Source of the DNA: Myxococcota bacterium | GTDB lineage: Bacteria; Myxococcota; XYA12-FULL-58-9; JABJBS01 | DNA: 31,159 nucleotides | NCBI GenBank assembly: GCA_036339465.1 | Contig: JAYZAY010000075.1 | Location: forward strand, 1 to 31,159 | Direction: 5' to 3' | Shown: positions 5,478-31,155 of the stretch, in pieces | How the letters are laid out: every line of letters begins with the position of its first letter | How positions within the stretch are numbered: position 1 is the first letter of the stretch | Made by a program: the position numbers and the translations under genes | Notes under the pieces: model-generated | What the model saw: only the letters and a program-made list of their open reading frames with translations | What the model was told of the DNA's origin: nothing | The model's database searches: none

Positions 5478-5492
5478 GCGGTTGGTGAGGGG

Positions 5493-5521
5493 GTAGTACA
5501 CAATCATTTTTAAGCTTGCAA
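5493..5521 (-). promoter_or_regulatory. Putative sigma70 promoter of tRNA-Glu
   Basis: Minus strand TTGCAA-N17-TACTAC with an extended TG, 15 bp upstream of the tRNA. Confidence 0.55.
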
Positions 5522-6048
5522 GTATTTTTTAGGGTAACCATGAATAAAGTTTTGTCCGGTGTGACCATTTTTGGTTGCCCGGGAGTTACTCGGTTGCTAT
5601 CTCACAAGGCAGTAATAAAGAACGTACCGGGGGGTATGGTAAATGTCATCTAAGAAACTAAAAGAAATCATGCGTATAAGTGCGGCATCGAATTTGGGAG
5701 CATTTTGTATTCCTTCGCTGAGAGCCGCTCAGAACGACAATCAACTCACCCACGACTTAAAAAGAAGTCTGGGTGGGGGTACGTGGGTTGAATGGGCAGA
5801 GTCCATGACTTCCTCAAAGAAACATTCCATTGATTAAGGCACTCTCCTTTTTTAAAATGTAATTAATCCAGTTACTTATGGGTTGATTGTGTTTTTTCTC
5901 TCTACTTGCTTCTCTGGGGTAAGCCCGCACTTTTGCGCTTTCTCTCGCACCCCAATGATCGCTTCGTCGACTTTATGGTTCTAAAAGGCGTCACGACCTG
6001 CGGGGTAGGCCGATAACCTACATACGCTAACAATCACTCAGGAGAGAC

Positions 6049-6240
6049 ATGACCATGAAAAAGCTCAGCAACCTCAGAAAAAAGCACGCCGAAGCAGTCG
6101 CTAAATTAACCGAAGCACGTTTACTTGCCCAAAGTAGAATTGGTAGCAACGCTTCGGTGACTAAAAAATTGAACGCGGCTATTCTCGAAGTTCAAATTCG
6201 TGACGCCAGTCTCTTCTCGCGGACTCGCTCGGTGAACTAA
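6049..6240 (+). CDS. Small basic helical hypothetical protein (63 aa)
   Basis: Strong RBS AGGAGA just before the ATG; Ala/Lys/Leu-rich helical sequence. Confidence 0.6.
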   Translation: MTMKKLSNLRKKHAEAVAKLTEARLLAQSRIGSNASVTKKLNAAILEVQIRDASLFSRTRSVN

Positions 6241-6471
6241 TTCGTTCCTTGTTTGCTCGGTATCCGTTTCCTCATCTTTAAAGCGGCTTGCCTTGTTTTC
6301 CTATACGGGTTGAGCGTTGTCTGTTTTGGGACTTCATACAATTTTTTGGCCCCTGCCCTTTTCTACGTTTATCCATTGCCACATCTGCATCCGCGCACGT
6401 CTTAGAAATGCAACCAACAAAACCTGCAACCATAGGAAAGCACGTGCCGACGGTGTGCTCAGGGGGCCGTG

Positions 6472-6639
6472 ATGAAGTGTTGGAACGCCCCATTCACCAT
6501 CGTCATGACCCTCCTCGTGATGGCGTTCTTTGCGATGGGAATGCCGGTGATACCCAAATCAGAGCACGGGGGGGGGATGAAGCTGACGCGCGGGCTTCGA
6601 GGATTGACTGCGTCAATTCGAAAGGGCGACCGGAAATGA
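6472..6639 (+). CDS. Small single-TM hypothetical protein (55 aa; below the ORF-track cutoff)
   Basis: Translated by hand: MKCWNAPFTIVMTLLVMAFFAMGMPVIPKSEHGGGMKLTRGLRGLTASIRKGDRK; AGGGGG RBS at 6461-6466. Confidence 0.4.
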   Translation: MKCWNAPFTIVMTLLVMAFFAMGMPVIPKSEHGGGMKLTRGLRGLTASIRKGDRK

Positions 6640-7011
6640 GTCTGTAGGTTTGACCCTTGTTGCACTTGAGGGAGGGGCCTCGAATCTTTCTCTTGAGCTA
6701 TGGCTGAAGTAAGGATGCTCGGCGAAGTAGGTAAAGACAACCGTCTTTTCTGGGGTCTGTCGATAAAAGAACGCTTGAGGTGGGTTTATCCAAGAACAAG
6801 AGGTCTCAAGAGTCCACAATTTAATCGCCCTTTTGTGCATTTCTTAGACCGTTGAGAGTTCTGGTTTAGTCTTGTTGCCTAGGCGTTTTATGTCGTTTTA
6901 TCGTGTGAAAATTGCGCCAGCAGTTTGGCCATGCTTTTTTGAGAAGTGGATCGTCGAGCAACCGTGGAACAAGGTCTTTTAGGGGCTGCGGCTTTTCTAG
7001 GGGCTGGCAGG

Positions 7012-12170: not shown

Positions 12171-12650
12171 TCAGGGGCAATCGAGATTGCCAGTGATGCT
12201 AATGGAATCACTGGGGAGGTCCAAGTTGCTGATAGCGTCTTGGGCAGAGGCGCACGCCAGCCGGTCGTTGTAGGATATACCCACGGTTGTTCCCACCGTG
12301 TCGAGGCTATTTAAATTCAGTTCCGTCAGATTGTCGTTGTTCTTTATTTGTAACGACATGCCCACTTCTTCTAGGTTGGGCAGGTCAAGGCTTGTGAGCA
12401 TCCGGTTATTTTCCACAAAAAGAAGTCCCGTCACTTTGGTGAGATTGGGCCAAGAAGCCTGGTGGATGCCGGTATTGGCAATGGTTAGATTACCGTCGAC
12501 CTGGTTATAGCGGCCATAAAACGCGACGTCGCGGTCGCTTTTTATATTAATTGGGCCGCTGTAGATATTTCCATCACCACAGCCCACAGCTGTGCCCATC
12601 ACCAATAAAAAAAGCCCAGCGCCTTGCCGATAAAACTTAGGCAATATCAT
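12171..12650 (-). CDS. Lipoprotein with receptor-L-domain-like leucine-rich repeats
   Basis: Lipobox AVG-C; repeats of the type LPNLEEVGMSLQIKNNDNLTEL and LNSLDTVGTTVGISYND. Confidence 0.7.
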   Translation of the reverse strand: MILPKFYRQGAGLFLLVMGTAVGCGDGNIYSGPINIKSDRDVAFYGRYNQVDGNLTIANTGIHQASWPNLTKVTGLLFVENNRMLTSLDLPNLEEVGMSLQIKNNDNLTELNLNSLDTVGTTVGISYNDRLACASAQDAISNLDLPSDSISITGNLDCP

Positions 12651-12725: not shown

Positions 12726-13571
12726 CTAGGAAGCCGAGACCAGAACTTCACCGATAGGCCCACGTCGGTCTGCGCGGCTGTTAATGGCCCGTCGCGCGTA
12801 TATTTTATCGATCTTAAAATCCTTATAAAGTTCCCGAATGAGTGGTGTGTCGGAATTTGAGAGCACGACATGAACTCCCCTATTGGCCAACCGACCAAAT
12901 AGTTTCGCTAGGCGTGCTTGATGCTCTTCTCCAAATCCGAACTGGGTATAATTCGTAAAGGATGCGGTCTTACTTACCGGTTGATATGGAGGGTCAAAAT
13001 AGACAAGGTCACCCTGTTTTACACGTTTTCCAATCTCAAAAACGGACTCGTTTTTAAGTTGAACTTTTTGCAAGGCACTGGAAACAGCCCGAAGATTCGC
13101 TTCATTACAAATAGTAGGATTGGCGTATTTCCCAAATGGGACATTGAACCTACCGCTTCGGTTGACACGATAGAGGCCATTAAAGCATGTCCTATTGAGA
13201 AAAATAATCCGAGCAGCTGCTTCAACCGAAGATAAATTTGCGACATTAAGCTGTCTTACTTGGTAATAGTATTCCTCTTCGGATCTGTGTGCTTTGAGCG
13301 CCTGAATCACAGCATCAACATTGTCGCGAATTGAGGTATAGGTCCCAATTAAATCGCTGTTAACATCAGAGATTGTTGCACGCTTTGGAGCAAGGCGAAA
13401 GAACGCCGCACCACCACCGACAAATGGCTCATGGTAGCGATTAAATTGTTCTGGAAAGCGAGCAAAGATTTCATTCAAAATCTGCGTTTTTCCACCAGCC
13501 CATTTTAAGAATGGTTTCGCGCTTTGGAATCTTGTTTCACTTCTGAGAGTTAATTTTCGAGCGGTTTGCAT
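12726..13571 (-). CDS. dam: Dam-family (D12 class) N6-adenine DNA methyltransferase
   Basis: KPFLKWAGGK, EPFVGGGA, LNRTCFNGLYRVN..FNVPFG, catalytic DPPY, VLSNSDT. Confidence 0.93.
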   Translation of the reverse strand: MQTARKLTLRSETRFQSAKPFLKWAGGKTQILNEIFARFPEQFNRYHEPFVGGGAAFFRLAPKRATISDVNSDLIGTYTSIRDNVDAVIQALKAHRSEEEYYYQVRQLNVANLSSVEAAARIIFLNRTCFNGLYRVNRSGRFNVPFGKYANPTICNEANLRAVSSALQKVQLKNESVFEIGKRVKQGDLVYFDPPYQPVSKTASFTNYTQFGFGEEHQARLAKLFGRLANRGVHVVLSNSDTPLIRELYKDFKIDKIYARRAINSRADRRGPIGEVLVSAS

Positions 13572-15823: not shown

Positions 15824-16294
15824 TTAGAGCTTCGAACGATGAAGTCCATGTATTTCGAAATCGCGGCCTTCATCTTGGATTTTAATATAGATCCAGATGG
15901 CTTCATCGGAGATGATTTCCGGTACTCGGTCGGCCCATTCAAAGACGTTTATCGCATGTTCGGCGCTTGGATGGTCGGCCAAACCAAGCCCGTAGGCCGA
16001 CTCTGCGTCCGTGAGGCGGTAAAGGTCGTAATGGAGGAGCAGGTTTTCCTCACAGCGGTATTCATTGACATAAGCATAGGTAGGACTCGTGACCTGTTCG
16101 GTTGGGAGAATTCGGAGCCCAGCCGCAATCCCATGAACCAATTGCGTCTTTCCGGCTCCAAGGTCGCCGACGAGCGCAATGACATCGCCTGGCTTCATTA
16201 TTTGTCCAAGCCTTTTACCAAAGTGGAGTGTGTCTTCAAGGCTCTCCACCCTTTCGACCCATACCTCTGGATTCTCTGTTGTCATCGTTGCCAC
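15824..16294 (-). CDS. tsaE: tRNA threonylcarbamoyladenosine biosynthesis ATPase
   Basis: GDLGAGKT, VTSPTY, HYDLYRL, EWAD. Confidence 0.95.
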   Translation of the reverse strand: MATMTTENPEVWVERVESLEDTLHFGKRLGQIMKPGDVIALVGDLGAGKTQLVHGIAAGLRILPTEQVTSPTYAYVNEYRCEENLLLHYDLYRLTDAESAYGLGLADHPSAEHAINVFEWADRVPEIISDEAIWIYIKIQDEGRDFEIHGLHRSKL

Positions 16295-17811
16295 TCCAAG
16301 AAAACGTCACCGGCAGCTTCAAGCACATCGCGGGCCCGCATGCCAGCAAATCCATGGGTCTGGCTAGCTCTTTGAGCAGCTTCACCATGTAAAAGAATGC
16401 CGGATAGGATCCCATCCATGGTTTGCGGGCATTGGCCAATCAGGGCGGCAATCATCCCCGTCAACACGTCGCCACTTCCCGCTTTGGCAAGGCCCGGATT
16501 TCCAACCGTGGCGATGAAGGTATCTCCCTGGGGCTGGGCCACAATGGTGTGGGCCCCTTTAAGCACGACGTAGATTTTGTGGTCTCGCGCGATTTTTTCA
16601 GCTGCTTCTACCGGTGCGCCAAGGACCTCAGAGGTGGTTGCGCCGAGCAAACGGCTCATCTCCTTGGGGTGAGGCGTGATGATGCGGTGCCCCCGTGCGC
16701 TGCCCATTTCTAAATTGTCGGAAGCAATGATATTGAGTGCTTCGGCGTCTAGCACCATGGTTCCATCATATTCGGTTAAGAGCGTTTTGAACCGCCGTCT
16801 TGACCGATCCGAAAATTGAAGCCCCGGGCCCACCACCAAAGTCGTGGTGTCTCGAACCAAAATATCCTGCCATTCTTCATCATTTTTGGACTTATCTAGC
16901 CAACGAAGCATGGCTTCTTTTGGCCATGAGGGGCCACTGGCAAAAAGCGCCTCAGTGGCGGCCCAACTGACCAAACCAGCACCGGCACGTAGAGCCCCTT
17001 CCACAGCCAAGATAGCAGCGCCTGGGCTCGATTGGGAACCGGCCCACACACCCACATGCCCGAAATGTCCCTTATGACAGTTCCGTGGCCTGGCGGGTAG
17101 TCCGATCGGTCCTTCAGGGGCGCCTATCTGACGCAACTGAACCTTGTGTTTCTGGGGCAATTCGTCAGGGATCCCTATGTCGATGACATCGATCTCGCCG
17201 GATAGCTCAGCTCCAGGAAAAAGGAGATTTCCTCTTTTGGGATAGGCGAATGTAATGGTTCCATTGGCCCGAATCGCAATATTGTCAAATACATTGCCCG
17301 AAGTGCCACAAACCCCCGAAGGGATGTCGAGTGCGATGGTTTGGCAAGGGGATGCATTGGTGGCCAAAATCACTTCTTTATAGGGAGACCGGGGGCTTGC
17401 TTGAAGGCCTGTACCGAGCATGGCATCGATGATGATGGTATTGGCAGGTAAGCGTTGAATCAGGTCTGCGACATCCTGGGCGCCGAGCACGTTGGTTTGC
17501 AGGCCGAGGCTGCGCCATTGTTCGTAAGCCCGCTTTACATCACCGGTCAGGGCTTCAAGAGGACAAAGGCTCACCAACGTGAGGTTGCGCCCTCCGAGGT
17601 GAAGGTCGTGGCCTACAACATATCCGTCTCCACCATTGTTGCCTTTTCCGCACAGGATTAAGATGTGTTTATGGGCAGGATAACGGTTTTGAATGATTTG
17701 AGCAGCACCTTTACCTGCTCGCCGCATCAAGGAGAAACCCGTGATACCATAATCGACAATGGTGGTGCGGTCCAGTTCCCTCATTTGCTCGGAAGTTAAA
17801 ACGTAGGTCAT
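16282..17811 (-). CDS. nnr: Bifunctional NAD(P)H-hydrate epimerase/dehydratase (YjeF)
   Basis: GKGNNGGDG, DAMLGTG, DIPSG, HKGHFG, GAGLV, GPGL, TPHPKE, GSGDVLTG. Confidence 0.95.
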   Translation of the reverse strand: MTYVLTSEQMRELDRTTIVDYGITGFSLMRRAGKGAAQIIQNRYPAHKHILILCGKGNNGGDGYVVGHDLHLGGRNLTLVSLCPLEALTGDVKRAYEQWRSLGLQTNVLGAQDVADLIQRLPANTIIIDAMLGTGLQASPRSPYKEVILATNASPCQTIALDIPSGVCGTSGNVFDNIAIRANGTITFAYPKRGNLLFPGAELSGEIDVIDIGIPDELPQKHKVQLRQIGAPEGPIGLPARPRNCHKGHFGHVGVWAGSQSSPGAAILAVEGALRAGAGLVSWAATEALFASGPSWPKEAMLRWLDKSKNDEEWQDILVRDTTTLVVGPGLQFSDRSRRRFKTLLTEYDGTMVLDAEALNIIASDNLEMGSARGHRIITPHPKEMSRLLGATTSEVLGAPVEAAEKIARDHKIYVVLKGAHTIVAQPQGDTFIATVGNPGLAKAGSGDVLTGMIAALIGQCPQTMDGILSGILLHGEAAQRASQTHGFAGMRARDVLEAAGDVFLEWQR

Positions 17812-17834
17812 ACCAGCAATGCCTTGGGAATCGT

Positions 17835-18551
17835 TTAGATACTGAGAGCGGCGAACTCATCCACTGCGCTCTCTAAACCAGTAAAGAGCGCCCTTGCAAA
17901 GAGCGCCTCGCCTGCAACAATATCGAGCACGTCTTCGATGGCGCTTAGGTCGGCCGCATTGGCATAGGTGAGCCCTTTTGCGCAGCCGACGTTTAAACCA
18001 AACTTCCGGGCCAGTCTGGCGGCGTCCATGATGCGCTGGAGTTCCTCATGTCGTGTGCCTCGACTGGGGGCTTGAATAAGACCGAGAGCAGAGAATAGGA
18101 CATTTTGAAATTCTAGCCGGTGTATCTGACGAATGACATCGATATCTGGAGATGTAAATGCGCCCACCCCGATACCATTTTCCCGTAGGGGTGCAGAAAG
18201 CGTCTTCAGGTGTTCGATATTGGAAAAAACATCGAGGGTGGCATGTTTCTGACCCTCTGGGCGACGTTTCCCGAAATAGACCATTTCTGGTTTCATATTC
18301 ATGGCGAATTTTATGAGTTCGGGTTCCGGAGCGATGATAAGCTGCAGTTTGGCATCGGTTATTTCTTGGGTGATGCCCACGTCTCGTTCATGGTCCAGTA
18401 GTGTTTCCTGGAAGATTTCGAATTGAATCCCCTTGATATGACGCAACGTTGCTAAGCCAGCAATCAGTGCGGGATCGGGTCTTTTGATTTCACTGGTTGC
18501 GCGAAATCGCACAATAGGACTTAAGTCGATCACAAGACGTCGTTTTTGCAT
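17835..18551 (-). CDS. pdxJ: Divergent PdxJ-family TIM-barrel protein, probably catalytically degenerate
   Basis: PdxJ-like length, position after glmM and scaffold (PDPAL.A, ERDV, KPEMVYF, AARLARKFGL, GLTY.N, ARALFTGLESAV); catalytic motifs substituted. Confidence 0.7.
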   Translation of the reverse strand: MQKRRLVIDLSPIVRFRATSEIKRPDPALIAGLATLRHIKGIQFEIFQETLLDHERDVGITQEITDAKLQLIIAPEPELIKFAMNMKPEMVYFGKRRPEGQKHATLDVFSNIEHLKTLSAPLRENGIGVGAFTSPDIDVIRQIHRLEFQNVLFSALGLIQAPSRGTRHEELQRIMDAARLARKFGLNVGCAKGLTYANAADLSAIEDVLDIVAGEALFARALFTGLESAVDEFAALSI

Positions 18552-18563
18552 GGCATCATCTCT

Positions 18564-19925
18564 CTATCCAATGGCTGAAGTAAGGGCTCGGCTCACTTTG
18601 TGCGCGAGGTCGTCCACCACTTCTTTTTCGGGTCCTTCTACCAATACCCTAGCTTTTGACTCTGTGCCAGAATACCGCACCATGACCCTCCCGTCGGTAC
18701 CCAGGGTGGTTTCTGCCTGCTGAATCGCTGCCTGAACCTGTGAGAGTTCTTCGAGGGGTGGTTTGGTTTTCACCGGTAAGTTGACCAATGCTTGCGGATA
18801 AGGGACAAAAACGCCTTTGATTTCGCTGAGGGGTTGACCGCAACGTCGTAGAATTGAAAGTACCCGGAGGGCGCCAACCATGCCGTCGCCTGTGGTGGCC
18901 CAATCTAAAAAGACCAAATGCCCAGACTGCTCGCCCCCAAAGGAGTGTCCCGATTGACGCATTTTTTCCACCACGTAGCGGTCCCCCACCTGGGTTCGTA
19001 TAACCTTGCCTCCAAAGTTTGCCACGGCGCGTTCGAGTCCAAGATTGGACATGACTGTGGTTACCACCGTCTTGTTTGCCAGTAGGTTTGCTTCATTGAG
19101 GTCTTGAGCTGCCAAAGCAAGAAGGCAATCGCCATCCACGTCTTCCCCTTTTTCGTCGACCACGACCAAACGGTCGGCATCACCATCGAGGGCGATCCCC
19201 ACGTCGGCACTATGTTCCTTAACAGCGGCGCGAAGATTCTCAGTGTGGAGCGCGCCGCAATTGGCGTTGATATTTCGGCCATTGGGGGTGGTTCCAATGG
19301 CGATAACTTCTGCGCCCAATTCTTGTAAAACGATGGGTGCTACTTTGTAGGCGGCCCCGTTGGCGCAATCGACTACCACCTTAATGCCTTCAAAATCCAT
19401 CTCGGTTGAGATAGAACTTTTGAGTTTGACCACGTAGCGTCCGAGGGCGTCGTCGATTCGATAGGCTTTTCCGACGAGTTCTTGGGTAGGGCGTATCTGG
19501 TGGACGGATTCGTCTTCCATTAAGTGTTCCAATTCCAATTCGATACTGTCTGGTAGTTTAAAGCCGTCACGGGCAAAAATCTTGATGCCATTGTCGGCAT
19601 ACTGATTATGGCTGGCGCTGATCATGACCCCCGCATCGGCACGCATATTTTGGGTGAGGAACGCCACGGCCGGCGTTGGGAGAGGGCCTACAAAGAGGAT
19701 ATCGACGCCCATGGAGCATGCGCCACTGGCGAAGGCCATTTCCAGCATATAGCCCGAGAGTCGGGTATCCTTGCCCACCACAATTCGGTGCCGATGGTCG
19801 CCATCTCGGCAGTGGTGTCCTAGGGCCCTTCCTAGTTTAAGGGCCACTTCACTGGTCATTGGAAACTGATTGGCTACGCCGCGAATGCCATCGGTGCCGA
19901 ATAGCTGTCTGGTCATTAGATTCAT
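18564..19925 (-). CDS. glmM: Phosphoglucosamine mutase
   Basis: LFGTDGIRG, GKDTRLSGYMLE, MISASHN, DGDADR, VGDRYV, GGEQSGH, RYSGTE. Confidence 0.97.
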   Translation of the reverse strand: MNLMTRQLFGTDGIRGVANQFPMTSEVALKLGRALGHHCRDGDHRHRIVVGKDTRLSGYMLEMAFASGACSMGVDILFVGPLPTPAVAFLTQNMRADAGVMISASHNQYADNGIKIFARDGFKLPDSIELELEHLMEDESVHQIRPTQELVGKAYRIDDALGRYVVKLKSSISTEMDFEGIKVVVDCANGAAYKVAPIVLQELGAEVIAIGTTPNGRNINANCGALHTENLRAAVKEHSADVGIALDGDADRLVVVDEKGEDVDGDCLLALAAQDLNEANLLANKTVVTTVMSNLGLERAVANFGGKVIRTQVGDRYVVEKMRQSGHSFGGEQSGHLVFLDWATTGDGMVGALRVLSILRRCGQPLSEIKGVFVPYPQALVNLPVKTKPPLEELSQVQAAIQQAETTLGTDGRVMVRYSGTESKARVLVEGPEKEVVDDLAHKVSRALTSAIG

Positions 19926-19958
19926 CCTAACTTAGCGGCCGCCAAGCTAGATTGAAGC

Positions 19959-20882
19959 TTAATCGACCTTTTTCGATATCATTACCGTGGGGATGGGGCC
20001 AACCATGGTGGTACCAGGAGGCAGTCCTTCCTTGAGCTCTATTGACTTCTCATAACCCAGGCTCTCTTTCAAGAGTTCTGGTTCCACTGACACCCACGCA
20101 TTCAGCTTTTCAGCGGTGAGTTTGTCTAGGCTCAACCGGGGGCCGCGAATGACCACGGCAACAGCAGGCGGGTCCAAGCGCACCGGCATTTCATGGTCGA
20201 TTTTGTGATTAATTTCGACCGATGCGAAAACCCGTTGAATCACCTCTTCTTCCACCTTCACCACCACACGAACGCGTTTTTGGGTTAATCGCAGTGGAAA
20301 GGCTGGGGCGCGAAGATCAATTTCGGTGTCGAGATTGTCTGTGCGACCGGCGAGATCTAGGGCCGTGGTTTGTAGGTAGTCGAGATCTGAAACTGATCCC
20401 AATGGACCTGATACCCGAATATCGGGGGGTTCGATGATGACATCCGCGATGGCGTAGCCATAGGCGGGGCGATTGGGAAGTAATGCCTCGACCCTTACGA
20501 GGCGTTCGACTTTCTGGTCCACGGTGATATCCCAGGTGGATGGCCGAAAGCGCATGGCCTTCATGCCAAAGGGGGCCCCGATGTCTGAGGTTTTCAAGGC
20601 GTACTGTATGGTGGAGGGCTCCTTATAATCTTTGAGGTCCACCACGATTGGGTCGATCTTACTGAAATCACGGAATTTTACCCAGGGCCCCCGAAGCGTC
20701 ACTTCCAGTTGAGTCGGGAAATCACCGGTGAGCATGAGGCCGTTTGCGGTGCGATACTCAATGGGAAAACTGATTTCGATGGGTGTGGCACTCTCTACAT
20801 TGAGCACGATAAAGAGGGACACGGCGATACCAAAAGACAGAAGTTTTAGGAACCAATTATGTGTGATTTCGCCCAAGGCCAT
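19959..20882 (-). CDS. cdaR: YbbR-domain diadenylate cyclase regulator
   Basis: N-terminal TM NWFLKLLSFGIAVSLF; repeated YbbR motifs (VTLRGP, P..IRVSGP, PPAVAVVIRGP); lies between cdaA and glmM. Confidence 0.88.
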   Translation of the reverse strand: MALGEITHNWFLKLLSFGIAVSLFIVLNVESATPIEISFPIEYRTANGLMLTGDFPTQLEVTLRGPWVKFRDFSKIDPIVVDLKDYKEPSTIQYALKTSDIGAPFGMKAMRFRPSTWDITVDQKVERLVRVEALLPNRPAYGYAIADVIIEPPDIRVSGPLGSVSDLDYLQTTALDLAGRTDNLDTEIDLRAPAFPLRLTQKRVRVVVKVEEEVIQRVFASVEINHKIDHEMPVRLDPPAVAVVIRGPRLSLDKLTAEKLNAWVSVEPELLKESLGYEKSIELKEGLPPGTTMVGPIPTVMISKKVD

Positions 20883-20889
20883 CCCTTCC

Positions 20890-21750
20890 CTATCCCTTCC
20901 TGTTCATGAAGGCTGCGGTTGGATTTTTTGATGTTTGACAGGCATCGCTTCGGCCAGTCGTCTCATTTAGCTTGGGTTTTTCGATGAGGTCCAGATGTTT
21001 TCGCAGTACTTTCTTTAACATGGCCCCATCGAGATTGCGGGTGAGACTGCCACTTTCCACAAAGCTAATTTGCCCACGTTCCTCAGAAACGACGATTCCC
21101 ACCGCGTCGTATTCTTCGGTGGCCCCCATGGCCGCACGGTGTCGGGTGCCGATGGTGTTATCGATTCTGGGGTTGTGGGTGAGTTGGAGAAAGACAGCGG
21201 CGGCGCTCAGACGCCCATGTTGAATGATGGCCGCGCCGTCATGGGTCGGGCCCGGGGGTGTAAAGAGCTGAATCAGCAGCGGAGCCGAGAGATTGGCGTC
21301 GATGGCAAACCCTTTTTCTGCCAGGGCGGTGAGGTCTGCGCCTCGCTCGATAAGAATGAGGGCGCCGATTCGGTCTTTGGCCATGGCATCGGCGGCGCGA
21401 ACGATTTGGTCGACCCAATCCTCTTCGGTACGGTCTCGGTTGAATTCAAAGATGGACCGTTGGCCCACGCGGGAAAGTCCTCGTCGGATGTCGTTTTGAA
21501 AAAGTATAATGAGAATCAGCAGAAAGGAGCCCAGGAAGTTTTCTAAGAGCCAAGACACTGTCCGGAGGTTGATGAGTCTGGCGGCGATAAAAAGGGCGAC
21601 GATAAGGCCCAAACCCACCAAAACCTGTTGGGCGCGGGTTCCGCGGATGAGGAGAAGGACGCGATAGAGCAGCCAAGCCACCACCATGACGTCCACCAGC
21701 GACACGCCAATCGCTGCAAGTAAATGTGGCTCAAAATCAAAAATCATCAC
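20890..21750 (-). CDS. cdaA: Membrane diadenylate cyclase (c-di-AMP synthase)
   Basis: Three N-terminal TM segments, FQNDIRRGL, GALI.IER, HDGA, GTRHRAA, IVVSEERG. Confidence 0.95.
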   Translation of the reverse strand: MMIFDFEPHLLAAIGVSLVDVMVVAWLLYRVLLLIRGTRAQQVLVGLGLIVALFIAARLINLRTVSWLLENFLGSFLLILIILFQNDIRRGLSRVGQRSIFEFNRDRTEEDWVDQIVRAADAMAKDRIGALILIERGADLTALAEKGFAIDANLSAPLLIQLFTPPGPTHDGAAIIQHGRLSAAAVFLQLTHNPRIDNTIGTRHRAAMGATEEYDAVGIVVSEERGQISFVESGSLTRNLDGAMLKKVLRKHLDLIEKPKLNETTGRSDACQTSKNPTAAFMNRKG

Positions 21751-21990: not shown

Positions 21991-22358
21991 GGGGGCGACA
22001 GGTTTCGACGGGGATACTGAGATGTGCTCGGTGCGTGCCGTGGATGTCATGTGACCACGTAAATACCGTGTGACAAACTTTAAATGCCAACTCTGATGTT
22101 GAGCTCGCTCTAGCAGCTTAAAAACCTGCTGGGCGCGTCGGTCCCCGACTCTGCCAGTGGTTGGGGGTCACCGGCGCCAAAACAGCTGGCTGGAAGTTAG
22201 GGGGCGTCTCAGCGCTTAACTTCGAGAAAATCTGAGGCTAGCCATCTGAGCAGCCTGTCGATGGGCGTCTTTGAAGGTAAGATAAATCATCGACTACGCA
22301 CGTAGTACCACACGTTAACGGTTCTCGGACGCGGGTTCAATTCCCGCCGCCTCCACCA
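21991..22358 (+). ncRNA. ssrA: tmRNA; tag reading frame 22086-22121 encodes (A)ANSDVELALAA*
   Basis: 5' GGGGGCGACAGGTTTCGAC pairs with 3' CGCCTCCACCA; T-arm GCGGGTTCAATTCCCGC; tag ends LAA-stop. Confidence 0.96.
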
Positions 22359-22390
22359 CTTTCTGCCAATCTTACTCGCGGGAATTAAAC

Positions 22391-22445
22391 CCGCTAGGCG
22401 GGTTCCACTTACCTAGTTGGTCTAGAATCCGAGCCCGCCTAGCGG
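22391..22445 (+). terminator. 15-bp inverted repeat after ssrA, possible terminator
   Basis: CCGCTAGGCGGGTTC ... GAGCCCGCCTAGCGG (one G-U pair) around a 25-nt loop; U-tract is weak. Confidence 0.5.
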
Positions 22446-22609
22446 CGTGTTCGTTTCAAGACCAAGACGGACGTACCCGCCGCCACCACATGGATACATA
22501 AAATCGGCCGCAAACTGGATCGTAAAACACTTAAATGCACCCACGATTCACTTTGTTACTGGGAGATGATACCGGCGGAGAGGGACCCCGCCTTTTCGGA
22601 GGGGGATGT

Positions 22610-23134
22610 TTACTTCTCGGAGGTCTCGTTGAGGTGCTCCTGAATATAGCTTCGAATTTGGGCGTTTTGCTGTCGCACGGCATTCACCACGGCACGCTCC
22701 ACTTGAGCACCCACCAGCCACAGGTTGCAGTTCACTTCACCCTCGGTGCACCAGGTGACAGTGCCTTGGCTCTCGCTGCGCAGGGAGAACGCGCCCCGAG
22801 TGGAGCTGCCGATCAGGCCTGAGTTTTGCAGCTTCGTGCTCATGGTCCCCTGGTGGGTTCGAAAGTTGTAATCGGTGGTCTCCACGAAATCCATGGCGTC
22901 GGCGCCTAACACCGTCTTGAGAATGACTGGGACGGCTTCGCTTCGGGGTTGCACGAGGATCTCGAGGTGGAGGCGGTCTTCGAAGACCTCTTCTTTGAGG
23001 ACTTTGGAGTTGCTCCCCAGCTTATTGTAGAGTTGCTCGTTCCATTTGGGCTGCCGAAGGCAATGGTCTTCGTAGGTTTTGATGGGGTCGGTGGAGTTTG
23101 GAACGGTGTAGGTGTTGCTGCTGGCAAATTTCAT
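22610..23134 (-). CDS. DUF2505-like (START/Bet v1-fold) protein
   Basis: 174 aa; patterns MKF.....Y, PVILKTVLG, GEVNCNLWLVGAQVERAVV resemble DUF2505 proteins. Confidence 0.6.
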   Translation of the reverse strand: MKFASSNTYTVPNSTDPIKTYEDHCLRQPKWNEQLYNKLGSNSKVLKEEVFEDRLHLEILVQPRSEAVPVILKTVLGADAMDFVETTDYNFRTHQGTMSTKLQNSGLIGSSTRGAFSLRSESQGTVTWCTEGEVNCNLWLVGAQVERAVVNAVRQQNAQIRSYIQEHLNETSEK

Positions 23135-24125: not shown

Positions 24126-24527
24126 ATGCTAGGCCTTAGTGGAGATGGCCTTAATGAACCTTTTGTCACTGAGTTAGTTCGGGTGCAAACACTTGATAGT
24201 CGTCGGGACGGAGTCTATTTTTTTCGCAATAAACGAAACGGGCGCTTTGAAAAGCATCAAGTTACAGATGGACCTGGGCGCACGGCTTATGCCGCTCTTG
24301 GCTCGCTAAAACCGACTTCAACAGATCTTGGTGTGAGTGTGTTTGGAATGTATGCAACGGGAAGTCTCACCTTGCTTAAGGATATTCGATTTACTCAAGG
24401 CGAGGTAAGGCATGCACCGATGCTCCCTTATTGCCATAGGGTTAGCCTCCACACCTGCCCTGTATTTCAATTAAGAACATCCAAAAAACACGACTCTTCG
24501 CAACTCAATCGTGGGCGCTGCCGATAA
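24126..24527 (+). pseudogene. Possible remnant of an FG-GAP/VCBS-repeat protein
   Basis: LSGDGLNE and VYFFRNKRNGRFE resemble FG-GAP (DxxGDGxxD...lxxNxGxGxF) elements; the rest is degenerate. Confidence 0.3.
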
Positions 24528-24566: not shown

Positions 24567-26153
24567 ATGACAAAAATTCCAAGCAGCCTAAGTCAAACAC
24601 CTAATCCGACGATCACCACGCCAACCAGCGCCCCATGTAGGATACGTCCAGAGCCCCAGGCAACCTTAGGAGATAAATTCGAAAACGCTGCTTTTTATGG
24701 GCTAGATTCAGCCCTCGGAGCCTTAGCACGAAGCGGTTTCGCTGCCCCCACCATTCACAATGGGGTAAAACTACTGCAAAAAGCAGGGTTCGCCAGCGGT
24801 CATGCGCCCGAATGGTATGATTCCATCGCCAATAGTGCCAGCAAGTTATTCGAAGCCGAATATAGGCGGCGCCCCAATCGACCGTCGTTCGAAGACCTCT
24901 CTGCCAAACACATTTTCAATATGAGAACCGGATCCGAAATGGGAAAAGAACTCAAGGCAAACGATGCTTTTCATGACGCTTCTTTCGTTTCCGAACTTGA
25001 AAATATCAGTCATGCAAAATTCTCTGACGGCAACAAAGTGAGCTTCCTCATCGATGGCCCCCAAGCTTTCGAAAAGAGGTTTGAACTCATCGATCAAGCC
25101 AAAGAGTCCATCTATCTCCTTGTCTGGTACATTTACCCCGACGCCACAGGAAAAGAAATAAGTCGTCGAATCGCAGCTAAAGCTTCAGAAGGCGTGGACG
25201 TAAAAATCATCGTCGATGGCAAAATCGCCATGAGATCTAGCGGAAAAGAAACCCTGAAGGTCATGGAAGAAGCTGGCGCGAAAATCATTCGATTGACAGA
25301 CCCTGAAGACGAGTCCATTGGCAACCACGCGAAACTCCTGATTGTCGATAACAAGGCTGCCGTGGCCGGAGGCATGAATACGGGAAACTTCTATAGCCAC
25401 GCCCATAAAGTTGATAGCAATTACAAAGGGGAAAAATGGCGCGATACAGACATCCTTGTGGAAGGCCCTGCGGTGGTCGATTCCTTAGCCCTCTTCGCCG
25501 ATTATTGGAACGGTCAAGTATTTGCTCACAATTACGACTTACCACCTGTCTCAGGAAATCGTAACGAATTACTTGCCAAAGTAGGAACTCCAGGCAAGAG
25601 CAAAACCTCCATTGTAAGCCATGTGCCCAAAGGCGGGCAGCACTACGTCTATAACTCACTGATGAAAGCGGTCGAAGGTGCCACCAAATCCATCGAAATT
25701 GAAAACGCCTATTTCCTAACATTACCCGGCATGGAGCAACTCCTAGAAGCCGCCCTCATGCGGGGCGTGAAAGTACGCATCTTCACAAACTCAAACCTTA
25801 CTGTTGACGAGCCACTTGCGGCGGAACCTATTATGAATTCATTGCCTGCTTTAGCTGAAGTCGGAGCCGAAATATTTATCAAAAAAGGCGATACCCTACA
25901 CAGTAAATTTATGGTCGTCGATGACTCCTTCGCTTCCGTTGGCAGTTTCAACTTGCACCCAAGATCCCTCCATTATGACATGGAAATGGCTGTCAACGTA
26001 ATCGATCCCGAAGCCGCAACCTGCCTACGCCAAACCTTTGACAATGACATACGCAAAGAGGTTGCCAAACCCATCAAAACCATGGATGACATGAAAATAG
26101 AGTCCACATGGTTCAATCGTTTCATCGAAAGGTTCTTCTACGACCACCTCTAA
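24567..26153 (+). CDS. Phospholipase D superfamily protein (cardiolipin-synthase-like catalytic core, no TM anchor)
   Basis: Two HKD motifs NHAKLLIVDNKAAVAGGMN and LHSKFMVVDDSFASVGSFN; WRDTD and IENAYF; RBS GAGG. Confidence 0.92.
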   Translation: MTKIPSSLSQTPNPTITTPTSAPCRIRPEPQATLGDKFENAAFYGLDSALGALARSGFAAPTIHNGVKLLQKAGFASGHAPEWYDSIANSASKLFEAEYRRRPNRPSFEDLSAKHIFNMRTGSEMGKELKANDAFHDASFVSELENISHAKFSDGNKVSFLIDGPQAFEKRFELIDQAKESIYLLVWYIYPDATGKEISRRIAAKASEGVDVKIIVDGKIAMRSSGKETLKVMEEAGAKIIRLTDPEDESIGNHAKLLIVDNKAAVAGGMNTGNFYSHAHKVDSNYKGEKWRDTDILVEGPAVVDSLALFADYWNGQVFAHNYDLPPVSGNRNELLAKVGTPGKSKTSIVSHVPKGGQHYVYNSLMKAVEGATKSIEIENAYFLTLPGMEQLLEAALMRGVKVRIFTNSNLTVDEPLAAEPIMNSLPALAEVGAEIFIKKGDTLHSKFMVVDDSFASVGSFNLHPRSLHYDMEMAVNVIDPEAATCLRQTFDNDIRKEVAKPIKTMDDMKIESTWFNRFIERFFYDHL

Positions 26154-27262: not shown

Positions 27263-27913
27263 ATGAAAGAATTTTGGTTTGTGGGCATGTTGGCTTTAGC
27301 CATGTGTGCTGCCTGTGGTGGGAATGAGTCGACGAGTGAAGGCCCAAATACCGATACCAGCGTGAGTGCCGCTGAAGATAATGATGCGGTCACCTCTGGC
27401 GGTAGTTCGGAAACCTTAGTCTGTGGGGCTTCGGCCTGCGGAGGTGATCCGGCGGGAACATGGAATCTCGAAAGTTTGTGTAGTGTTTACTCTGATGTGT
27501 ACCCAGATCCTTCCTGCTCCGGTTCTCAATTTGAGGAGAAGGGGGTCGCCTCGGGGACTTTGGTTTTGAAGAAAGACAAAACCTATACGCGAAATCTAAC
27601 CTTCGGAACGACTCTAAAAATCAATTTCCCTCTCTCGTGTGGAAAAAGTTGTCAATCCTTGGCGGATGGCTACGATAAAAATTGGCCGGAAATTCAGTGT
27701 ACCCAGACAGCCACGGAATGTGTTTGTGAAGGTGCTGTGATGGACTCTGTAGATACTGCGGGTAGCTACAGCGTCACAGGAACCAGTCTCGCATTGCAAG
27801 ACACTGGCTCTACGGAGGGCGCGACCTTCGAGATTTGTGTGGGTAGCCAAACCATGGTTTTTAATACCCCGGGAAATCCGGCCTTCGGGGGCATGTTGTT
27901 TGTGCCTCAATGA
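27263..27913 (+). CDS. Cys-rich lipoprotein of myxobacterial type
   Basis: RBS AGGAG; lipobox CAA-CGG; acidic Ser/Thr linker; ACGGDPAGTW motif; many Cys. Confidence 0.8.
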   Translation: MKEFWFVGMLALAMCAACGGNESTSEGPNTDTSVSAAEDNDAVTSGGSSETLVCGASACGGDPAGTWNLESLCSVYSDVYPDPSCSGSQFEEKGVASGTLVLKKDKTYTRNLTFGTTLKINFPLSCGKSCQSLADGYDKNWPEIQCTQTATECVCEGAVMDSVDTAGSYSVTGTSLALQDTGSTEGATFEICVGSQTMVFNTPGNPAFGGMLFVPQ

Positions 27914-28187
27914 GAGCACTGAGAAATCCTATGCCGCTCTAACCGGGATACGAGACACCCCGTAGGCCCTACCCCTCTTCGGGACTTATGGGGAACATGG
28001 CCATTACCATCAAGCCAGATTCCATCCATCCTCCCATATCTGATGGCTTTTATAAGGGGTTCTCCTCTCAGCCCCATGATGTGCCACTATGCCACCAGGG
28101 TTGCGCCTCAGTGACCTCCCGATTACCTCTTTCCTTGTGAAAATAGAGACTCAAAGTACTCGAGTGTGTTCCCGATTGATCTACACT

Positions 28188-30230
28188 CTATCTCATCTCG
28201 GTTGTGGAGCAGTGGATGTTTCCACCGTTGACGTGATTGGTTTGATAGTCATTGATGAAATGTAGGGTGTTTCCTGAAGCGGCGAGAGTATGCCGAATAT
28301 GTTTCTCAAAAACACACGAGCCTCCGCCTTCACTGGGACCGAAGGGTTTTGGAATCACCAAGGTTGCATGGTCTGGGCTATCACTCGCCACCAGCATATT
28401 CACACTATTCGGAGTAAAGGGTTCATAGGCCATTCGCTCTTTTTGCCCCCCAAACAAGCCTCCTATGGAGACGCTATCTTTGGCAGTACGACGGCGGTAG
28501 AGCACCGGAATATCAATGATATCCTCGGCCCTTAGTCCCAATTGGTCCCGCAACATGGTTTTGACAGAATCAAGCTTGGAACGAACCTCGTCAGCTGCTT
28601 GGCTGATACCGCCCATCTCGGTGTCTAAGATGGGTCCACTTGGAACGCCCGAAGCACTCGCCCGTGTTAAGGAATCGCCCATTCGCTGATATTTTTCCCT
28701 AAAGCCGTCTTCGACTCCGACGCACATGGGCTTGTCTCTATGGGCATGCATGAGCTTCATCGCCAGATCGTGATTGGCCACTAGGGCCTTAAAACCGTGC
28801 TTTGAGCCTGGCCAAGGCACAAAGGTGAGCACTTCGTCGGTGTGCCCGGTTTGGAGCCATGAAGTATCGATTCGGACAATGGGTTGCTTCTCTTGGGCGA
28901 TTAAGAAGTCTAGGGTGGCATCTCCGATTTTTCGTGCTGGATCGTGGCCAACAATGATTGCTCCAAATGGAAAACCATCGCCCATAGGTGGCGTGCATAA
29001 AAAATTGCCACCAGACTCTAGGTCTGACTTCATGGGTGCGTGCCCAATGGATGTTAAGCGCTGTCCGCGTTTTGCACAGTGAGAATCCATAAATGCAAGC
29101 ACTTGGTCGATGCCTTGGGTCTCTCGTTCAACCGGATTTCGCAGCAGCTCCGATGGCTCAAGAACGTCGCCCCGAGTGGCTAGGGAACGACCCGAAAACG
29201 CCATGTCTCTCACCCAGGAATCTTTGACATCTCCCTCTGCTCGAATGACTCGCAGCTTACCCGGAATCGCCGCACTGAGGTCTTGCAAATACTGCTCACA
29301 GCGGCGGTCATTCACGACGCGAGGTGGATCCGGTCGTCGACCCCGAATGGGGGGAGCGCTCATGAGACTGGTTTTCTGGATGGCGAAGGCCTCACGCATG
29401 GGCATGAGGTGATGCGACATCACCCAAGATGGTGCTCGAATAAATCGCGCTTCTTCACTCACTACATTTCCGATGGAGTCCAAAATGCGCATTCTTACCG
29501 TGACCCCAGAAAAATCTTTGGTGGGATGGGGAATCCCTTCAAGTTCATGGGACCAGGTTTCAGGTCGCCGCTCGGGGGCTCCAAACATTCGAACCCTTGC
29601 TTCGCTGGTGACAAGCTTCTGCTGTCCAATATCGAGAATATTGGTTCCATGTTCGTCCCGGTGATTGGGAATCGAAAAAAACGCATCGTCCCGAATTGAC
29701 AATTGTCCCGCATCTGGGGGGTCGAGAGTGAGTTCGCACTTGTAGCCTTCTGGGAAATCGGCCTCTGGCGGGTTTCTAGATAATTTAAGCTCGATAACCT
29801 CTCTTCCGTCTTTGATATGTGATTCCAGTTCCATAGATAAGACAGGAAGGGGGCTGGTCGTAGAAAGGGACGGGGCGTACACTAGGAATTCTGAAGTGTC
29901 GCCAAGATCGGCCGGTGATGGTTTAGGCGGGTGGTATGGTTGGGATACCTCTCGCGAATCGGTGGCTGACCTCGAGCTTTGTGGGGCAATGCCTTGCGCC
30001 GCACTGGTGGCTGAAACATTCACCACCAGCGCGTGGGTATCTGGAGGGAGGCCTTGAAGGCCATCGTGCAGGTGTTTTGAAAACTGATCGAGGGCTGCAG
30101 ATGGGAGGCTTGGGTTTTGTTTGGCTAAGGTGGCGCGAACCTCGGATTTACTGGCATTGTGTTCAACTTTGCCGCGAATCTCTAAAGCATCTGAAGCCGT
30201 TTTGGCGCTGAGAAAAAATTGGACCTTCAT
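28188..30230 (-). CDS. Protein-arginine deiminase, PADI (animal/cyanobacterial)-type
   Basis: RAPSWVM, WVRD, LESGGNFLCTPP, DTSWLQTGHTDEVLTFVP, IIDIPVLY, PNSVNMLV, IPKPFGP and GNIHCSTT match PADI catalytic-domain motifs in order. Confidence 0.88.
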   Translation of the reverse strand: MKVQFFLSAKTASDALEIRGKVEHNASKSEVRATLAKQNPSLPSAALDQFSKHLHDGLQGLPPDTHALVVNVSATSAAQGIAPQSSRSATDSREVSQPYHPPKPSPADLGDTSEFLVYAPSLSTTSPLPVLSMELESHIKDGREVIELKLSRNPPEADFPEGYKCELTLDPPDAGQLSIRDDAFFSIPNHRDEHGTNILDIGQQKLVTSEARVRMFGAPERRPETWSHELEGIPHPTKDFSGVTVRMRILDSIGNVVSEEARFIRAPSWVMSHHLMPMREAFAIQKTSLMSAPPIRGRRPDPPRVVNDRRCEQYLQDLSAAIPGKLRVIRAEGDVKDSWVRDMAFSGRSLATRGDVLEPSELLRNPVERETQGIDQVLAFMDSHCAKRGQRLTSIGHAPMKSDLESGGNFLCTPPMGDGFPFGAIIVGHDPARKIGDATLDFLIAQEKQPIVRIDTSWLQTGHTDEVLTFVPWPGSKHGFKALVANHDLAMKLMHAHRDKPMCVGVEDGFREKYQRMGDSLTRASASGVPSGPILDTEMGGISQAADEVRSKLDSVKTMLRDQLGLRAEDIIDIPVLYRRRTAKDSVSIGGLFGGQKERMAYEPFTPNSVNMLVASDSPDHATLVIPKPFGPSEGGGSCVFEKHIRHTLAASGNTLHFINDYQTNHVNGGNIHCSTTEMR

Positions 30231-30630
30231 GCTCTAAAACTCCAAAAACCTGAATGAGGGCACCCAATACAATCTAACTCAACCTGAAATTGGGTTGTTT
30301 GGATGAGCGATGGAATATGCCACATCAAGTGCGATGGAAGCGGACCACCGACCCTTTGGACGTCATACAAAGCATATCAAAGCTCTCTACGGTAATTGTG
30401 GGGCAATACGCAATTTTGTAGTTCAAAGCGGTTGAATATTTCACAAAATGGGTCTCAGCGTTTGTAGGCCCGTGATTCTAACTATTTTTTGGTTTTTGGA
30501 GGTGCGGTATGTTGTGGCTACTATCACCAATGAACGCACTGATTCCACCATGCCCAAGTATTGGAACGAAACCCACACTCAATTCTGGGCTTTGCTATTG
30601 TCGGAAGTGGTGCGTATCGACGTGGTGCGT

Positions 30631-31155
30631 CTACCGTAGAGCTTTGGCGAAAAGCGCCCGAGCTTCATCAACGGCTCCTAAAGCCCTCCGATTAAACCGG
30701 CCTGCACCTATAGAACCGGTGCCTCGTTCATTCAACGATTTTTCTGAAACCCTTAGCCGCCCGTAAACTTGCTCAAGCACCTCGCGCTCTTCCACGGCAA
30801 GTAATTTACGGACATAGGCACTGCGGGTCTTAGAAGATTGATTCAAAATCTGTTTGAAAAGTACCTCCCACCGGGCCGGACCATCGAAATCCTTGGTTTT
30901 TTGTGGTTTAGGAGACCTTAAACAATGCTCGGTAAACTCAACAACTTCGGACTGGCTGCCAAAGCGGACCCCTTTTGAGCGCACTGGCGCTGGTTCAAAA
31001 CTATCTCGACTCAACGTGTCTTTGTCATCCCCACTCGAAGAAGAGGCATCGTCTAAATCTGACTCGCTTGAACCTAAACTTGTATAAACATAAGCCCCAA
31101 CTGTAGCTGCAGCTATTACTGTCATTTCAACCCAACTTTCTAATTTTAAAGTCAC
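30631..31155 (-). CDS. Hypothetical protein with N-terminal hydrophobic segment; frame is open at the window edge
   Basis: 174-aa ORF with VIAAATVGAYVY, an acidic Ser-rich linker and a helical basic C-terminus. Confidence 0.55.
   Translation of the reverse strand: MTLKLESWVEMTVIAAATVGAYVYTSLGSSESDLDDASSSSGDDKDTLSRDSFEPAPVRSKGVRFGSQSEVVEFTEHCLRSPKPQKTKDFDGPARWEVLFKQILNQSSKTRSAYVRKLLAVEEREVLEQVYGRLRVSEKSLNERGTGSIGAGRFNRRALGAVDEARALFAKALR

Follow-up and report, generated by a model that had tools for sequence, protein, structure and literature searches.

A leaderless protein-arginine deiminase homologue with replaced calcium ligands in a Myxococcota genome

Activation by calcium is regarded as a hallmark of the PADI family of protein-arginine deiminases (PADs), and the other PADs need calcium for ordering of the active site. 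Here we describe a gene from a 31,159-nucleotide stretch of DNA of a Myxococcota bacterium (the window, which is one entire contig, C75, of the 4.17-Mb, 102-contig assembly G000; 92.8% complete, 1.4% contaminated). Its product, P0001, is encoded by an open reading frame (ORF) at positions 28188 to 30230 on the − strand. P0001 keeps the catalytic residues of the family, but the ligands of the calcium sites Ca1 and Ca2 are replaced and no export signal is seen. The sequence suggests that citrullination can run without a calcium switch.

Human PAD4 and PAD2 (for example, PDB 1WD8, 1WDA, and 4N20) share with P0001 the PF03068 catalytic domain, including the tetrad and the equivalents of PAD4 W347, R374, and H640, as well as a middle domain of which P0001 appears to have a remnant. 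Unlike them, P0001 lacks PAD_N, the Ca1 and Ca2 ligands, the Ca3/Ca4 loop, and a C-terminal tail, and it has a private N-terminal domain and belongs to a separate clade. Human PADI6 is reported to have lost the Ca1 glutamates, which are A and M there, and to be ordered without calcium, as we propose for P0001. However, the same report describes it as binding no calcium, having a displaced Cys, and being inactive in vitro (10.1101/2024.06.10.598250), whereas the catalytic residues of P0001 are invariant across a deep clade.

Among the bacterial enzymes, the three-domain cyanoPADI of Cyanothece sp. 8801 is leaderless and carries PF03068, as P0001 does, but it is reported to keep its calcium sites, to be strictly calcium dependent, and to group with animal PADIs (PMC8826395). 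Two-domain bacterial and fungal PADIs are described in that study as having PAD_M-like and PAD_C domains without PAD_N, having lost Ca2, and carrying Gly at the position of PAD4 D388 (the PADI2 D389 switch residue). P0001 likewise lacks PAD_N and the Ca2 ligands and carries this Gly, and its middle region may be PAD_M-like. They are also reported to keep Ca1 and Ca3, neither of which is kept by P0001. The actinobacterial and most Myxococcota members of this group have signal- or lipoprotein-like N termini, in contrast to P0001. In the bacterial order of the window's genome, lipoprotein PAD genes are followed by a HEAT-repeat partner gene, which the P0001 gene lacks. Porphyromonas PPAD (PF04371) is a bacterial peptidylarginine deiminase described as calcium independent (10.1101/2020.07.16.207027), as P0001 would be, but it is of a different family, and P0001 has no PAD_porph match at an E value of ≤1. 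The nearest named relatives are fusions of a PAD to a Ulp1-type protease in Myxococcaceae (Myxococcus sp. Y35, locus L014, and Pyxidicoccus sp. MSG2, WP_267854391.1), which fall in the same clade as P0001, share Arg, Phe or Tyr, and Leu or Met at Ca1, and have no signal peptide. These differ from P0001 (30 to 33% identity) in having a Pfam-detectable PAD_M with acidic Ca3-5 ligands and a C-terminal Peptidase_C48 domain, in place of which P0001 has its private N-terminal domain.

Family membership and catalytic residues

The Pfam, PDB, and profile matches, together with the invariant residues, confirm at the level of sequence that P0001 belongs to the PADI family and has an intact catalytic tetrad; the match to the family is far beyond chance. 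Pfam PAD (PF03068) matched residues 263 to 680 of P0001 on profile positions 9 to 386 of 395 (E = 1.1e-48; 166.6 bits against a cut-off of 25). All 27 sequences matched in a PDB search were protein-arginine deiminases, the best being PAD4 (3.2e-24), with GHTDE of P0001 opposite GHVDE and IHCST opposite VHCGT. A profile built from the ten sequences nearest to P0001 matched PAD4 over chain positions 120 to 652 (6.5e-61) and placed WVRD opposite WMQD.

An earlier reading of this DNA from its letters alone (the sequence-only reading) had proposed an animal-type PAD encoded at these positions. The ORF is present as claimed, with an ATG start and 680 amino acids (aa), and the motifs and residue numbers proved exact (WVRD, 339-342; GHTDE, 462-466; IHCST, 672-676; DLGDTSEFLV, 108-117; FIRAPSWVM, 263-271). 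Its proposed tetrad, D342, H463, D465, and C674, aligns with the PAD4 residues and is invariant over 56 sequences, with W339 and R369 nearly so, and the 121-residue spacing from Asp to His is indeed that of PAD4. In the numbering of that reading, the His-to-Cys spacing is 211 in P0001 versus 174 in PAD4, about 37 extra residues. Across a 219-row survey, the D/H/D/C tetrad was found in 199 of the 201 rows having letters at seven key columns. The equivalents of PAD4 W347, R374, and H640 are W339, R369, and H666, which are kept in all 11 rows of the clade described below. In PAD4 these are residues of the substrate cleft, R374 contacting the backbone of the peptide substrate.

The assignment to the PADI family rather than to the PPAD/agmatine deiminase type also held, given the PF03068 match and the lack of a PAD_porph match at an E value of ≤1; the relative P0003 gave a sub-threshold score of 12.4 bits with that model, and no NCBIfam model matched P0001. 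The guanidino-modifying superfamily includes enzymes that act on small guanidino compounds, and the substrate might be a non-peptidyl one (free arginine, agmatine, or another small molecule) if the ten clade-specific residues listed below, including R341 beside the catalytic Asp, had reshaped the pocket. The missing PAD_porph and NCBIfam matches argue against such a substrate, as does the conserved R374 equivalent with its presumed role at the peptide backbone, and we regard it as highly improbable.

The catalytic domain (aa 263-680) is the best conserved part of the chain, at 60% and 53% identity to P0002 and P0003, respectively, compared with 37% and 46% for the middle domain (aa 108-262), 17% and 21% for the linker (aa 78-107), and 32% and 18% for aa 1 to 77. 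The chain stops 6 residues past the catalytic Cys, with no C-terminal tail. Two motifs had been read earlier as echoes of the middle domain. FIRAPSWVM instead marks the start of the catalytic domain, residue 263 being the first one matched by Pfam PAD. DLGDTSEFLV has no detectable similarity to PAD_M; it is located where the acidic calcium loop of canonical PADs would be, and the alignment has gaps there. The Pfam check proposed with that reading thus came out positive for PAD and negative for PAD_M (PF08527), which did not match P0001 at an E value of ≤1 or, with residues 1 to 271 alone, at ≤5; neither PAD_N (PF08526) nor any other Pfam family besides PAD matched. A middle-domain core near aa 143 to 170 (EVIELKLSRNPPEADFPEGYKCELTLD) does align to canonical PAD_M, with hhalign of the middle region giving 86% probability (E = 4.9e-6) but over only 28 columns. 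The clade profile also aligned to PAD4 positions 120 to 300, the fusion members driving that match.

The novel N terminus of about 105 aa that had been noted is common only to P0001, P0002, and P0003 and matched no family, aa 1 to 77 having no Pfam match even at an E value of ≤10. No paralogue of this domain occurs in the same genome, and across five genomes of the same family, only the orthologue in G005 matched. In an ESM Atlas model (predicted template-modeling score, 0.70), aa 1 to 77 resemble the ubiquitin-like folds of Ub-RnfH, Rad60-SLD, and Sharpin with template-modeling scores of 0.42 to 0.48, which are below the usual bar. A beta-grasp (ubiquitin-like) fold of the domain is possible, and we treat it as a lead.

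Calcium ligands and the position of the clade

The list of PAD4 calcium ligands was taken from Table 1 of PMC5445078 and mapped through a 78-row alignment. The Ca1 ligands Q349, E353, and E411 correspond to R341, F345, and L411 of P0001, and the Ca2 ligands E351, D369, and N373 correspond to M343, R364, and E368. The Ca4 ligand D388 is a Gly in P0001, the Ca3/Ca4 ligands N153, D155, and D157 fall in alignment gaps, and D165 aligns to Met. The sequence-only reading thus missed what is, by alignment, the main difference from known PADs, namely, the substitution of every Ca1 and Ca2 ligand and the loss of the Ca3/Ca4 loop. Each of the 11 clade rows has R, M or I, F or Y, and L or M in the Q349, E351, E353, and E411 columns, respectively, whereas 64 of the 67 remaining rows retain Q349. 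The acidic Ca3-5 ligands are kept by the Ulp1-fusion subclade but not by the subclade of the window's protein. Ca1 and Ca3 appear to be fully conserved among the representative PADI homologues compared by Cummings et al. (PMC8826395), and, judged by the aligned residues, the clade of P0001 departs from that conservation.

An exhaustive search of 1.84 billion representative sequences returned 1,241 proteins at an E value of ≤1e-3 and 17 at ≤1e-30. Only P0002 (51% identity; the orthologue in G005, a genome of the same family) and P0003 (47%), plus the 99%-identical fragment P0007, are full-length relatives that include the N terminus. Trees were built from 93 loci, of which those ORFs were used that had a single PAD match covering 480 or more profile positions. 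Partial or split matches were left out, as were 14 Nostocales loci that were near duplicates and the loci of P0001 and P0002; 12 proteins were added, giving 78 rows without fungal PADIs. An 11-row clade unites P0001, P0002, P0003, P0008, P0011, and six PAD-Ulp1 fusions, including that of Myxococcus sp. Y35. In a 46-row subset under a site-heterogeneous model, this clade has support of 100/100 and was recovered in 100% of 200 bootstrap trees. Its members are 27 to 50% identical to P0001, and its stem is 0.89 changes per column long. A vertebrate PAD (P0062) was placed with the cyanobacterial rows in a different, well-supported clade, and same-phylum kin of the window's genome grouped with NCBI-labelled Myxococcota rows. 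P0008 and P0011 begin with a CxxC...CxxC motif that had no significant Pfam match.

A constraint uniting the 11 rows with the animal and cyanobacterial rows cost 74.07 log-likelihood units and was rejected by the approximately unbiased (AU) test (P = 0.000125); the choice of the constrained group came after inspection of the tree, but the hypothesis itself was that of the sequence-only reading. The phylogeny proposed with that reading therefore placed P0001 in the PADI family but not with the animal or cyanobacterial PADs. Because of the separate clade with 100/100 support and the rejected union, to which the missing PAD_N and PAD_M matches may be added, P0001 is a PADI-family enzyme by its sequence and yet not "animal-type" in the sense of Cummings et al. 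(PMC8826395), that is, a three-domain animal/cyanobacterial PADI. An ordinary calcium-dependent enzyme of that type, as had been implied, would share the family, the catalytic residues, and the D-to-H spacing of PAD4, all of which P0001 has. However, P0001 retains none of the six ligands of Ca1 (three) and Ca2 (three), is missing the Ca3/Ca4 loop, and matches neither PAD_N nor PAD_M, and the AU test rejects the grouping with animal and cyanobacterial rows, so we consider this option very unlikely.

Ten residues mark the clade: Y314, R341, M343, D403, G407, D430, T469, W473, S652, and E678. An Asp at position 403 accompanies Arg at position 341 in 17 of 39 Arg rows, compared with 7 of 163 rows with Gln. 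Four loops of PAD4 are reported to be ordered by calcium, including C337-Q349 and G395-G403 (10.1101/2024.06.10.598250), and the positions of R341 and D403 are the ends of these two loops.

The loss of Ca1 was surveyed in 194 non-redundant rows, a sample biased towards query-like proteins. Neither Ca1 glutamate position holds an acid in 35 rows, and the loss takes about 7 changes on a FastTree tree. Arg at the position of PAD4 Q349 is found in 32 of these 35 rows, in 4 of 28 rows with one acid at E353/E411, and in 2 of 126 rows with both acids. The association between this Arg and Ca1 loss is suggestive, but there are few phylogenetically independent events.

The Ca1 acids are likewise missing from another, separate set of 18 unlabelled PAD-like proteins, which have R-[KRQI]-[MLVT] at Q349/E353/E411 and Phe or Tyr at W347 (P0044, P0048, P0051, P0053, P0067, P0077, P0083, P0096, P0099, P0107, P0108, P0113, P0119, P0122, P0133, P0135, P0137, and P0153). 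We also found PAD homologues in two Methanophagales archaeon metagenome-assembled genomes (L067 and L068) that retain the Ca1 and Ca2 ligands and fall inside the animal/cyanobacterial clade in the trees.

Proposed activity without calcium and its possible place in the cell

The explanation that we consider probable is that P0001 is a catalytically intact, leaderless protein-arginine deiminase of the PADI family, from a rare deep clade, that works without calcium inside cells. We infer its activity, calcium independence, peptidyl substrate, and cytoplasmic place of action from sequence. By the mechanism of the family, Asp342 and Asp465 would hold a peptidyl-arginine while Cys674 attacks its guanidinium carbon and His463 acts as acid and base; ammonia would leave, and the thiouronium intermediate would be hydrolysed to give citrulline. 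From the replaced Ca1 ligands, the lost Ca2 ligands, and the missing calcium loop of the middle domain, it would follow that no calcium is needed to form the active site. A pair of Arg341 and the clade-specific residue Asp403 might replace the Ca1 bridge, and Phe345 and Leu411 might fill the former ion site; both the pairing and the geometry around C674 are conjectural. The enzyme would then act in a low-calcium cytoplasm, be it that of its own cell or of a target cell, and the private N-terminal domain may supply regulation or targeting.

A cytoplasmic place of action seems most likely because P0001 is without an export signal while most Myxococcota PADs are lipoprotein-like. By a crude hydrophobicity and lipobox heuristic of our own, lipoprotein signals are common among labelled Myxococcota PADs that do not belong to the clade (23 of 26) and occur in all four same-family rows, and none of the 11 clade rows has a lipoprotein signal or signal peptide. 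The absence of a signal peptide noted earlier for P0001 agrees with this. The heuristic also found signal-like N termini in the actinobacterial rows and no signal in the four cyanobacterial rows.

Several observations weigh against this explanation. Cyanobacterial PADIs are reported to be leaderless and yet strictly calcium dependent (PMC8826395), so the lack of a leader does not imply calcium independence. The signal calls come from the heuristic and not from a trained predictor. PADI6 offers a precedent, by analogy, for ordering without calcium, but it cuts both ways, being inactive in vitro in the same report (10.1101/2024.06.10.598250). Opposite PAD4 D168, D176, D179, and E252, P0001 has E, D, E, and E, although in a poorly aligned stretch, and the Ca5 positions align to two Glu residues, although with uncertainty; the E252 equivalent is Val in P0002 and P0003, the acids of the P0001 middle domain not being conserved in these two. 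When the Arg at the Q349 position was compared with the loss of Ca1 acids over five independent pairs, two changed in the same direction, none in the opposite direction, and three showed no difference (P = 0.5). Finally, no conserved gene neighbour hinting at a substrate was found.

The PADI6 precedent could also be followed further, with P0001 as a dead scaffold or pseudoenzyme whose fold was frozen in a non-productive state by the loss of calcium; PADI6, as described, is without Ca1 glutamates and calcium binding, ordered, and inactive in vitro (10.1101/2024.06.10.598250), and the loss in P0001 is of the same type. Opposed to this are the tetrad and the W347, R374, and H640 equivalents, which are invariant in 11 of 11 members despite only 27 to 50% identity to P0001, and the conservation of the catalytic domain (53 to 60%, versus 18 to 32% for the N terminus). 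The gene also appears roughly to fit purifying selection: on contigs from four marine DNA runs, the 40 of 87 variant places that were listed comprise 36 changed codons, 21 synonymous and 15 non-synonymous, and none of those 40 places falls at residue 341, 342, 345, 369, 403, 411, 463, 465, or 674, so that no catalytic residue is touched. Catalytic residues that do not vary within so deep a clade argue for retained activity, and a pseudoenzyme seems quite unlikely.

The divergent type to which P0001 belongs is rare, being present in 2 of 22 genomes of the order and in 4 of 401 sampled from the phylum (E ≤ 1e-90). PADs as such are not: of 41 related genomes searched, G000 included, 15 have a PAD gene of some kind, and a scan of species genomes returned 584 relatives, many of them in Myxococcota, Nostocales, and Actinomycetota, with a pattern, WLxVGH[VI]DE, that is unable to match the WLQTGHTDE of P0001 itself. 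The earlier statement that bacterial PADIs are known mainly from cyanobacteria and actinobacteria is thus incomplete, as Proteobacteria are also reported to have them (PMC8826395; 10.1101/2020.07.16.207027). Automatic annotation already recognises the family, since a cluster mate of P0004 from Pyxidicoccus sp. MSG2 (WP_267854391.1) is named "protein-arginine deiminase family protein." The DNA of the window recurs in marine and seawater metagenomes of about 10 studies; no RNA data set is listed among those carrying it.

The same leaderless, calcium-independent PAD could instead be a delivered effector or toxin that is injected into rival bacteria or eukaryotic grazers and neutralises target arginines, an option that departs from the explanation preferred here solely in the site of action. 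In bacteria, C48 domains are a typical feature of effectors, and the sister proteins are fused to a Ulp1-like Peptidase_C48 that scores above the Pfam cut-off and whose H, D, Q, and C motifs are intact in the alignment. The clade is patchy, one fusion gene adjoins a transposase and a TraI_2 relaxase, the genome has a type VI secretion system (T6SS) sheath gene, and independence from calcium would suit a target cytosol. However, the sheath gene is on another contig, with nothing linking it to the P0001 gene; only PAD was matched in P0001, and no PAAR, VgrG, Rhs, or MIX-like delivery domain was seen in the Pfam searches. There is also no conserved adjacent immunity-like gene, neither PADLOC nor PHROGs gave matches, and the plasmid and phage collections searched yielded no member of the clade (phages, none; plasmids, only five distant matches, all at ≤30% identity). 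A literature search for arginine deiminases as polymorphic-toxin effectors gave nothing relevant by title or abstract. We regard delivery as a possibility, although a rather unlikely one.

A broader proposal, which we hold to be unlikely, is that the whole clade consists of calcium-independent PADs in which an R341/D403 latch takes the place of the Ca1 ion in ordering the active site, so that the enzyme would be constitutively competent to citrullinate inside cells, and that its accessory domains tie citrullination to ubiquitin-like signalling, a so far unrecognised connection, perhaps as two-headed effectors. The possible beta-grasp N terminus of P0001 and the Ulp1-type protease of the sister proteins might be these accessory domains, with grazers or rival bacteria as targets.

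Three PAD_M-PAD-Peptidase_C48 fusions of 884 to 922 aa without a signal peptide were located at L014:3659-6325 (Myxococcus sp. Y35), L106:1501-4155, and L109:5533-8301, the last of which adjoins rve transposase and TraI_2 relaxase genes. The neighbours of the fusion genes differ among themselves.

Were the preferred explanation true, P0001 would be a naturally calcium-independent PADI of use for biochemistry and citrullination tools, a test, provided by nature, of the way in which calcium shapes the active site of PADs, and a first hint that bacteria citrullinate proteins in the cytoplasm or by injection. If it is calcium dependent or dead, it would be just one more bacterial PAD homologue, a kind known since 2020-2021. 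Literature searches, within the library that they covered, found nothing on protein-arginine deiminase with Myxococcus and, by title and abstract, nothing relevant on citrullination in myxobacteria; those on PF03068 found no calcium-less bacterial PADs by title and abstract, although the supplementary sequence lists of two key papers might include clade members.

Gene layout, neighbours, and other features of the window

Coordinates of the gene, its domains, and its key residues are given in Table 1. No sigma-70-like promoter was found around the gene across positions 27800 to 30700.

Table 1. Positions in the window of the P0001 gene and of its parts
Feature	Positions	Strand	Basis or remark
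Whole PAD-family gene (product P0001)	28188..30230	-	ATG start, 680 aa, TAG stop at 28188-28190
GGAG, candidate ribosome-binding site, 9 nt 5' of ATG	30240..30243	-	Read from sequence
N-terminal domain, aa 1-77	30000..30230	-	Private to P0001, P0002, and P0003; no Pfam family
Ser/Pro-rich linker, aa 78-107	29910..29999	-	6 S and 6 P per 30 residues; little conserved
Putative degenerate middle domain, aa 108-262 (PAD_M equivalent)	29445..29909	-	Alignment to canonical PADs; no Pfam PAD_M match
Catalytic PAD domain, aa 263-680 (PF03068)	28191..29444	-	Pfam profile
D342, catalytic Asp (PAD4 D350)	29205..29207	-	Alignment
H463-T464-D465, catalytic His and Asp (PAD4 H471, D473)	28836..28844	-	Alignment
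C674, catalytic nucleophile (PAD4 C645)	28209..28211	-	Alignment
R369 (PAD4 R374 equivalent)	29124..29126	-	Alignment
R341-D342-M343-A344-F345; R/M/F at PAD4 Ca ligands Q349 (Ca1), E351 (Ca2), E353 (Ca1)	29196..29210	-	
L411, at Ca1 ligand E411 of PAD4	28998..29000	-	Alignment
D403, clade-specific invariant Asp; mostly Ser/Thr in other PADs	29022..29024	-	Alignment

Downstream of the P0001 gene lies a convergent gene for a putative lipoprotein (27263-27913). Upstream, after a 400-bp gap, is an ORF for a membrane-anchored protein that is cut by the contig end and has no significant likeness to the neighbours of the G005 orthologue. Within 21 to 31 kb of the window, nothing is syntenic beyond a phospholipase D (PLD)-like neighbour. 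No HEAT-repeat partner stands beside the P0001 gene.

This lack of conserved neighbours matches what would be expected if P0001 served to tailor a ribosomal peptide natural product, with its substrate encoded elsewhere. A Streptomyces PF03068 PAD is reported to convert Arg to citrulline in the lasso peptide citrulassin and to be encoded away from the gene cluster, and the gene contexts of bacterial PADs are described as diverse (10.1101/2020.07.16.207027). However, there are no lasso or other ribosomal peptide natural product genes among the Pfam matches of the window; the actinobacterial PADs are in a distant clade, with Ca1 kept and signal-like N termini; and the Ulp1 fusions hint at protein rather than peptide targets. 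A tailoring role is therefore decidedly unlikely.

Six canonical lipoprotein-like PAD genes from genomes of the same family or order (L005, L007, L008, L009, L012, and L013) are each followed by a same-strand ORF of 288 to 398 aa, and four of the six ORFs match HEAT_2. Neither a canonical PAD nor its HEAT-repeat partner was found in the window's genome, the assembly of which is 92.8% complete.

The PLD-like (HKD) neighbour is a two-domain protein of 528 aa (24567-26153, +) whose N-terminal part of about 150 aa has no family match. Orthologues and several paralogues of it occur in all five same-family genomes, and an ORF of 133 aa with no assigned function lies just 5' of it (24126-24527, +). 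PADLOC gave no match for the three PADs queried and only generic PLD-superfamily (DrmC) matches for this neighbour.

A transfer-messenger RNA (tmRNA) gene at 21991-22358 (+) scored 201.9 bits with Rfam and has the tag ANSDVELALAA; a second, overlapping "tmRNA*" call by ARAGORN (22266-23000) is without a matching Rfam match and may be spurious. A tmRNA-linked island was considered and rejected, since neither an integrase nor a direct repeat of the end of the tmRNA was found downstream.

Farther away, a co-directional run of genes (15824-21750, −) encodes CdaA (DAC), YbbR, a GlmM-like phosphoglucosamine mutase, PdxJ, an NAD(P)HX epimerase/dehydratase, and TsaE. A D12-class N6-adenine DNA methyltransferase is encoded at 12726-13571 (−; 1e-67), with no restriction-enzyme family among the neighbouring Pfam matches. 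A region of 1.8 kb (5215-7011) has no ORF of at least 120 aa and contains only a tRNA-Glu gene (5401-5477, −). An ORF of 159 aa at 12171-12650 (−) matches Pfam Recep_L_domain (6e-9), a domain best known from animal receptor tyrosine kinases.

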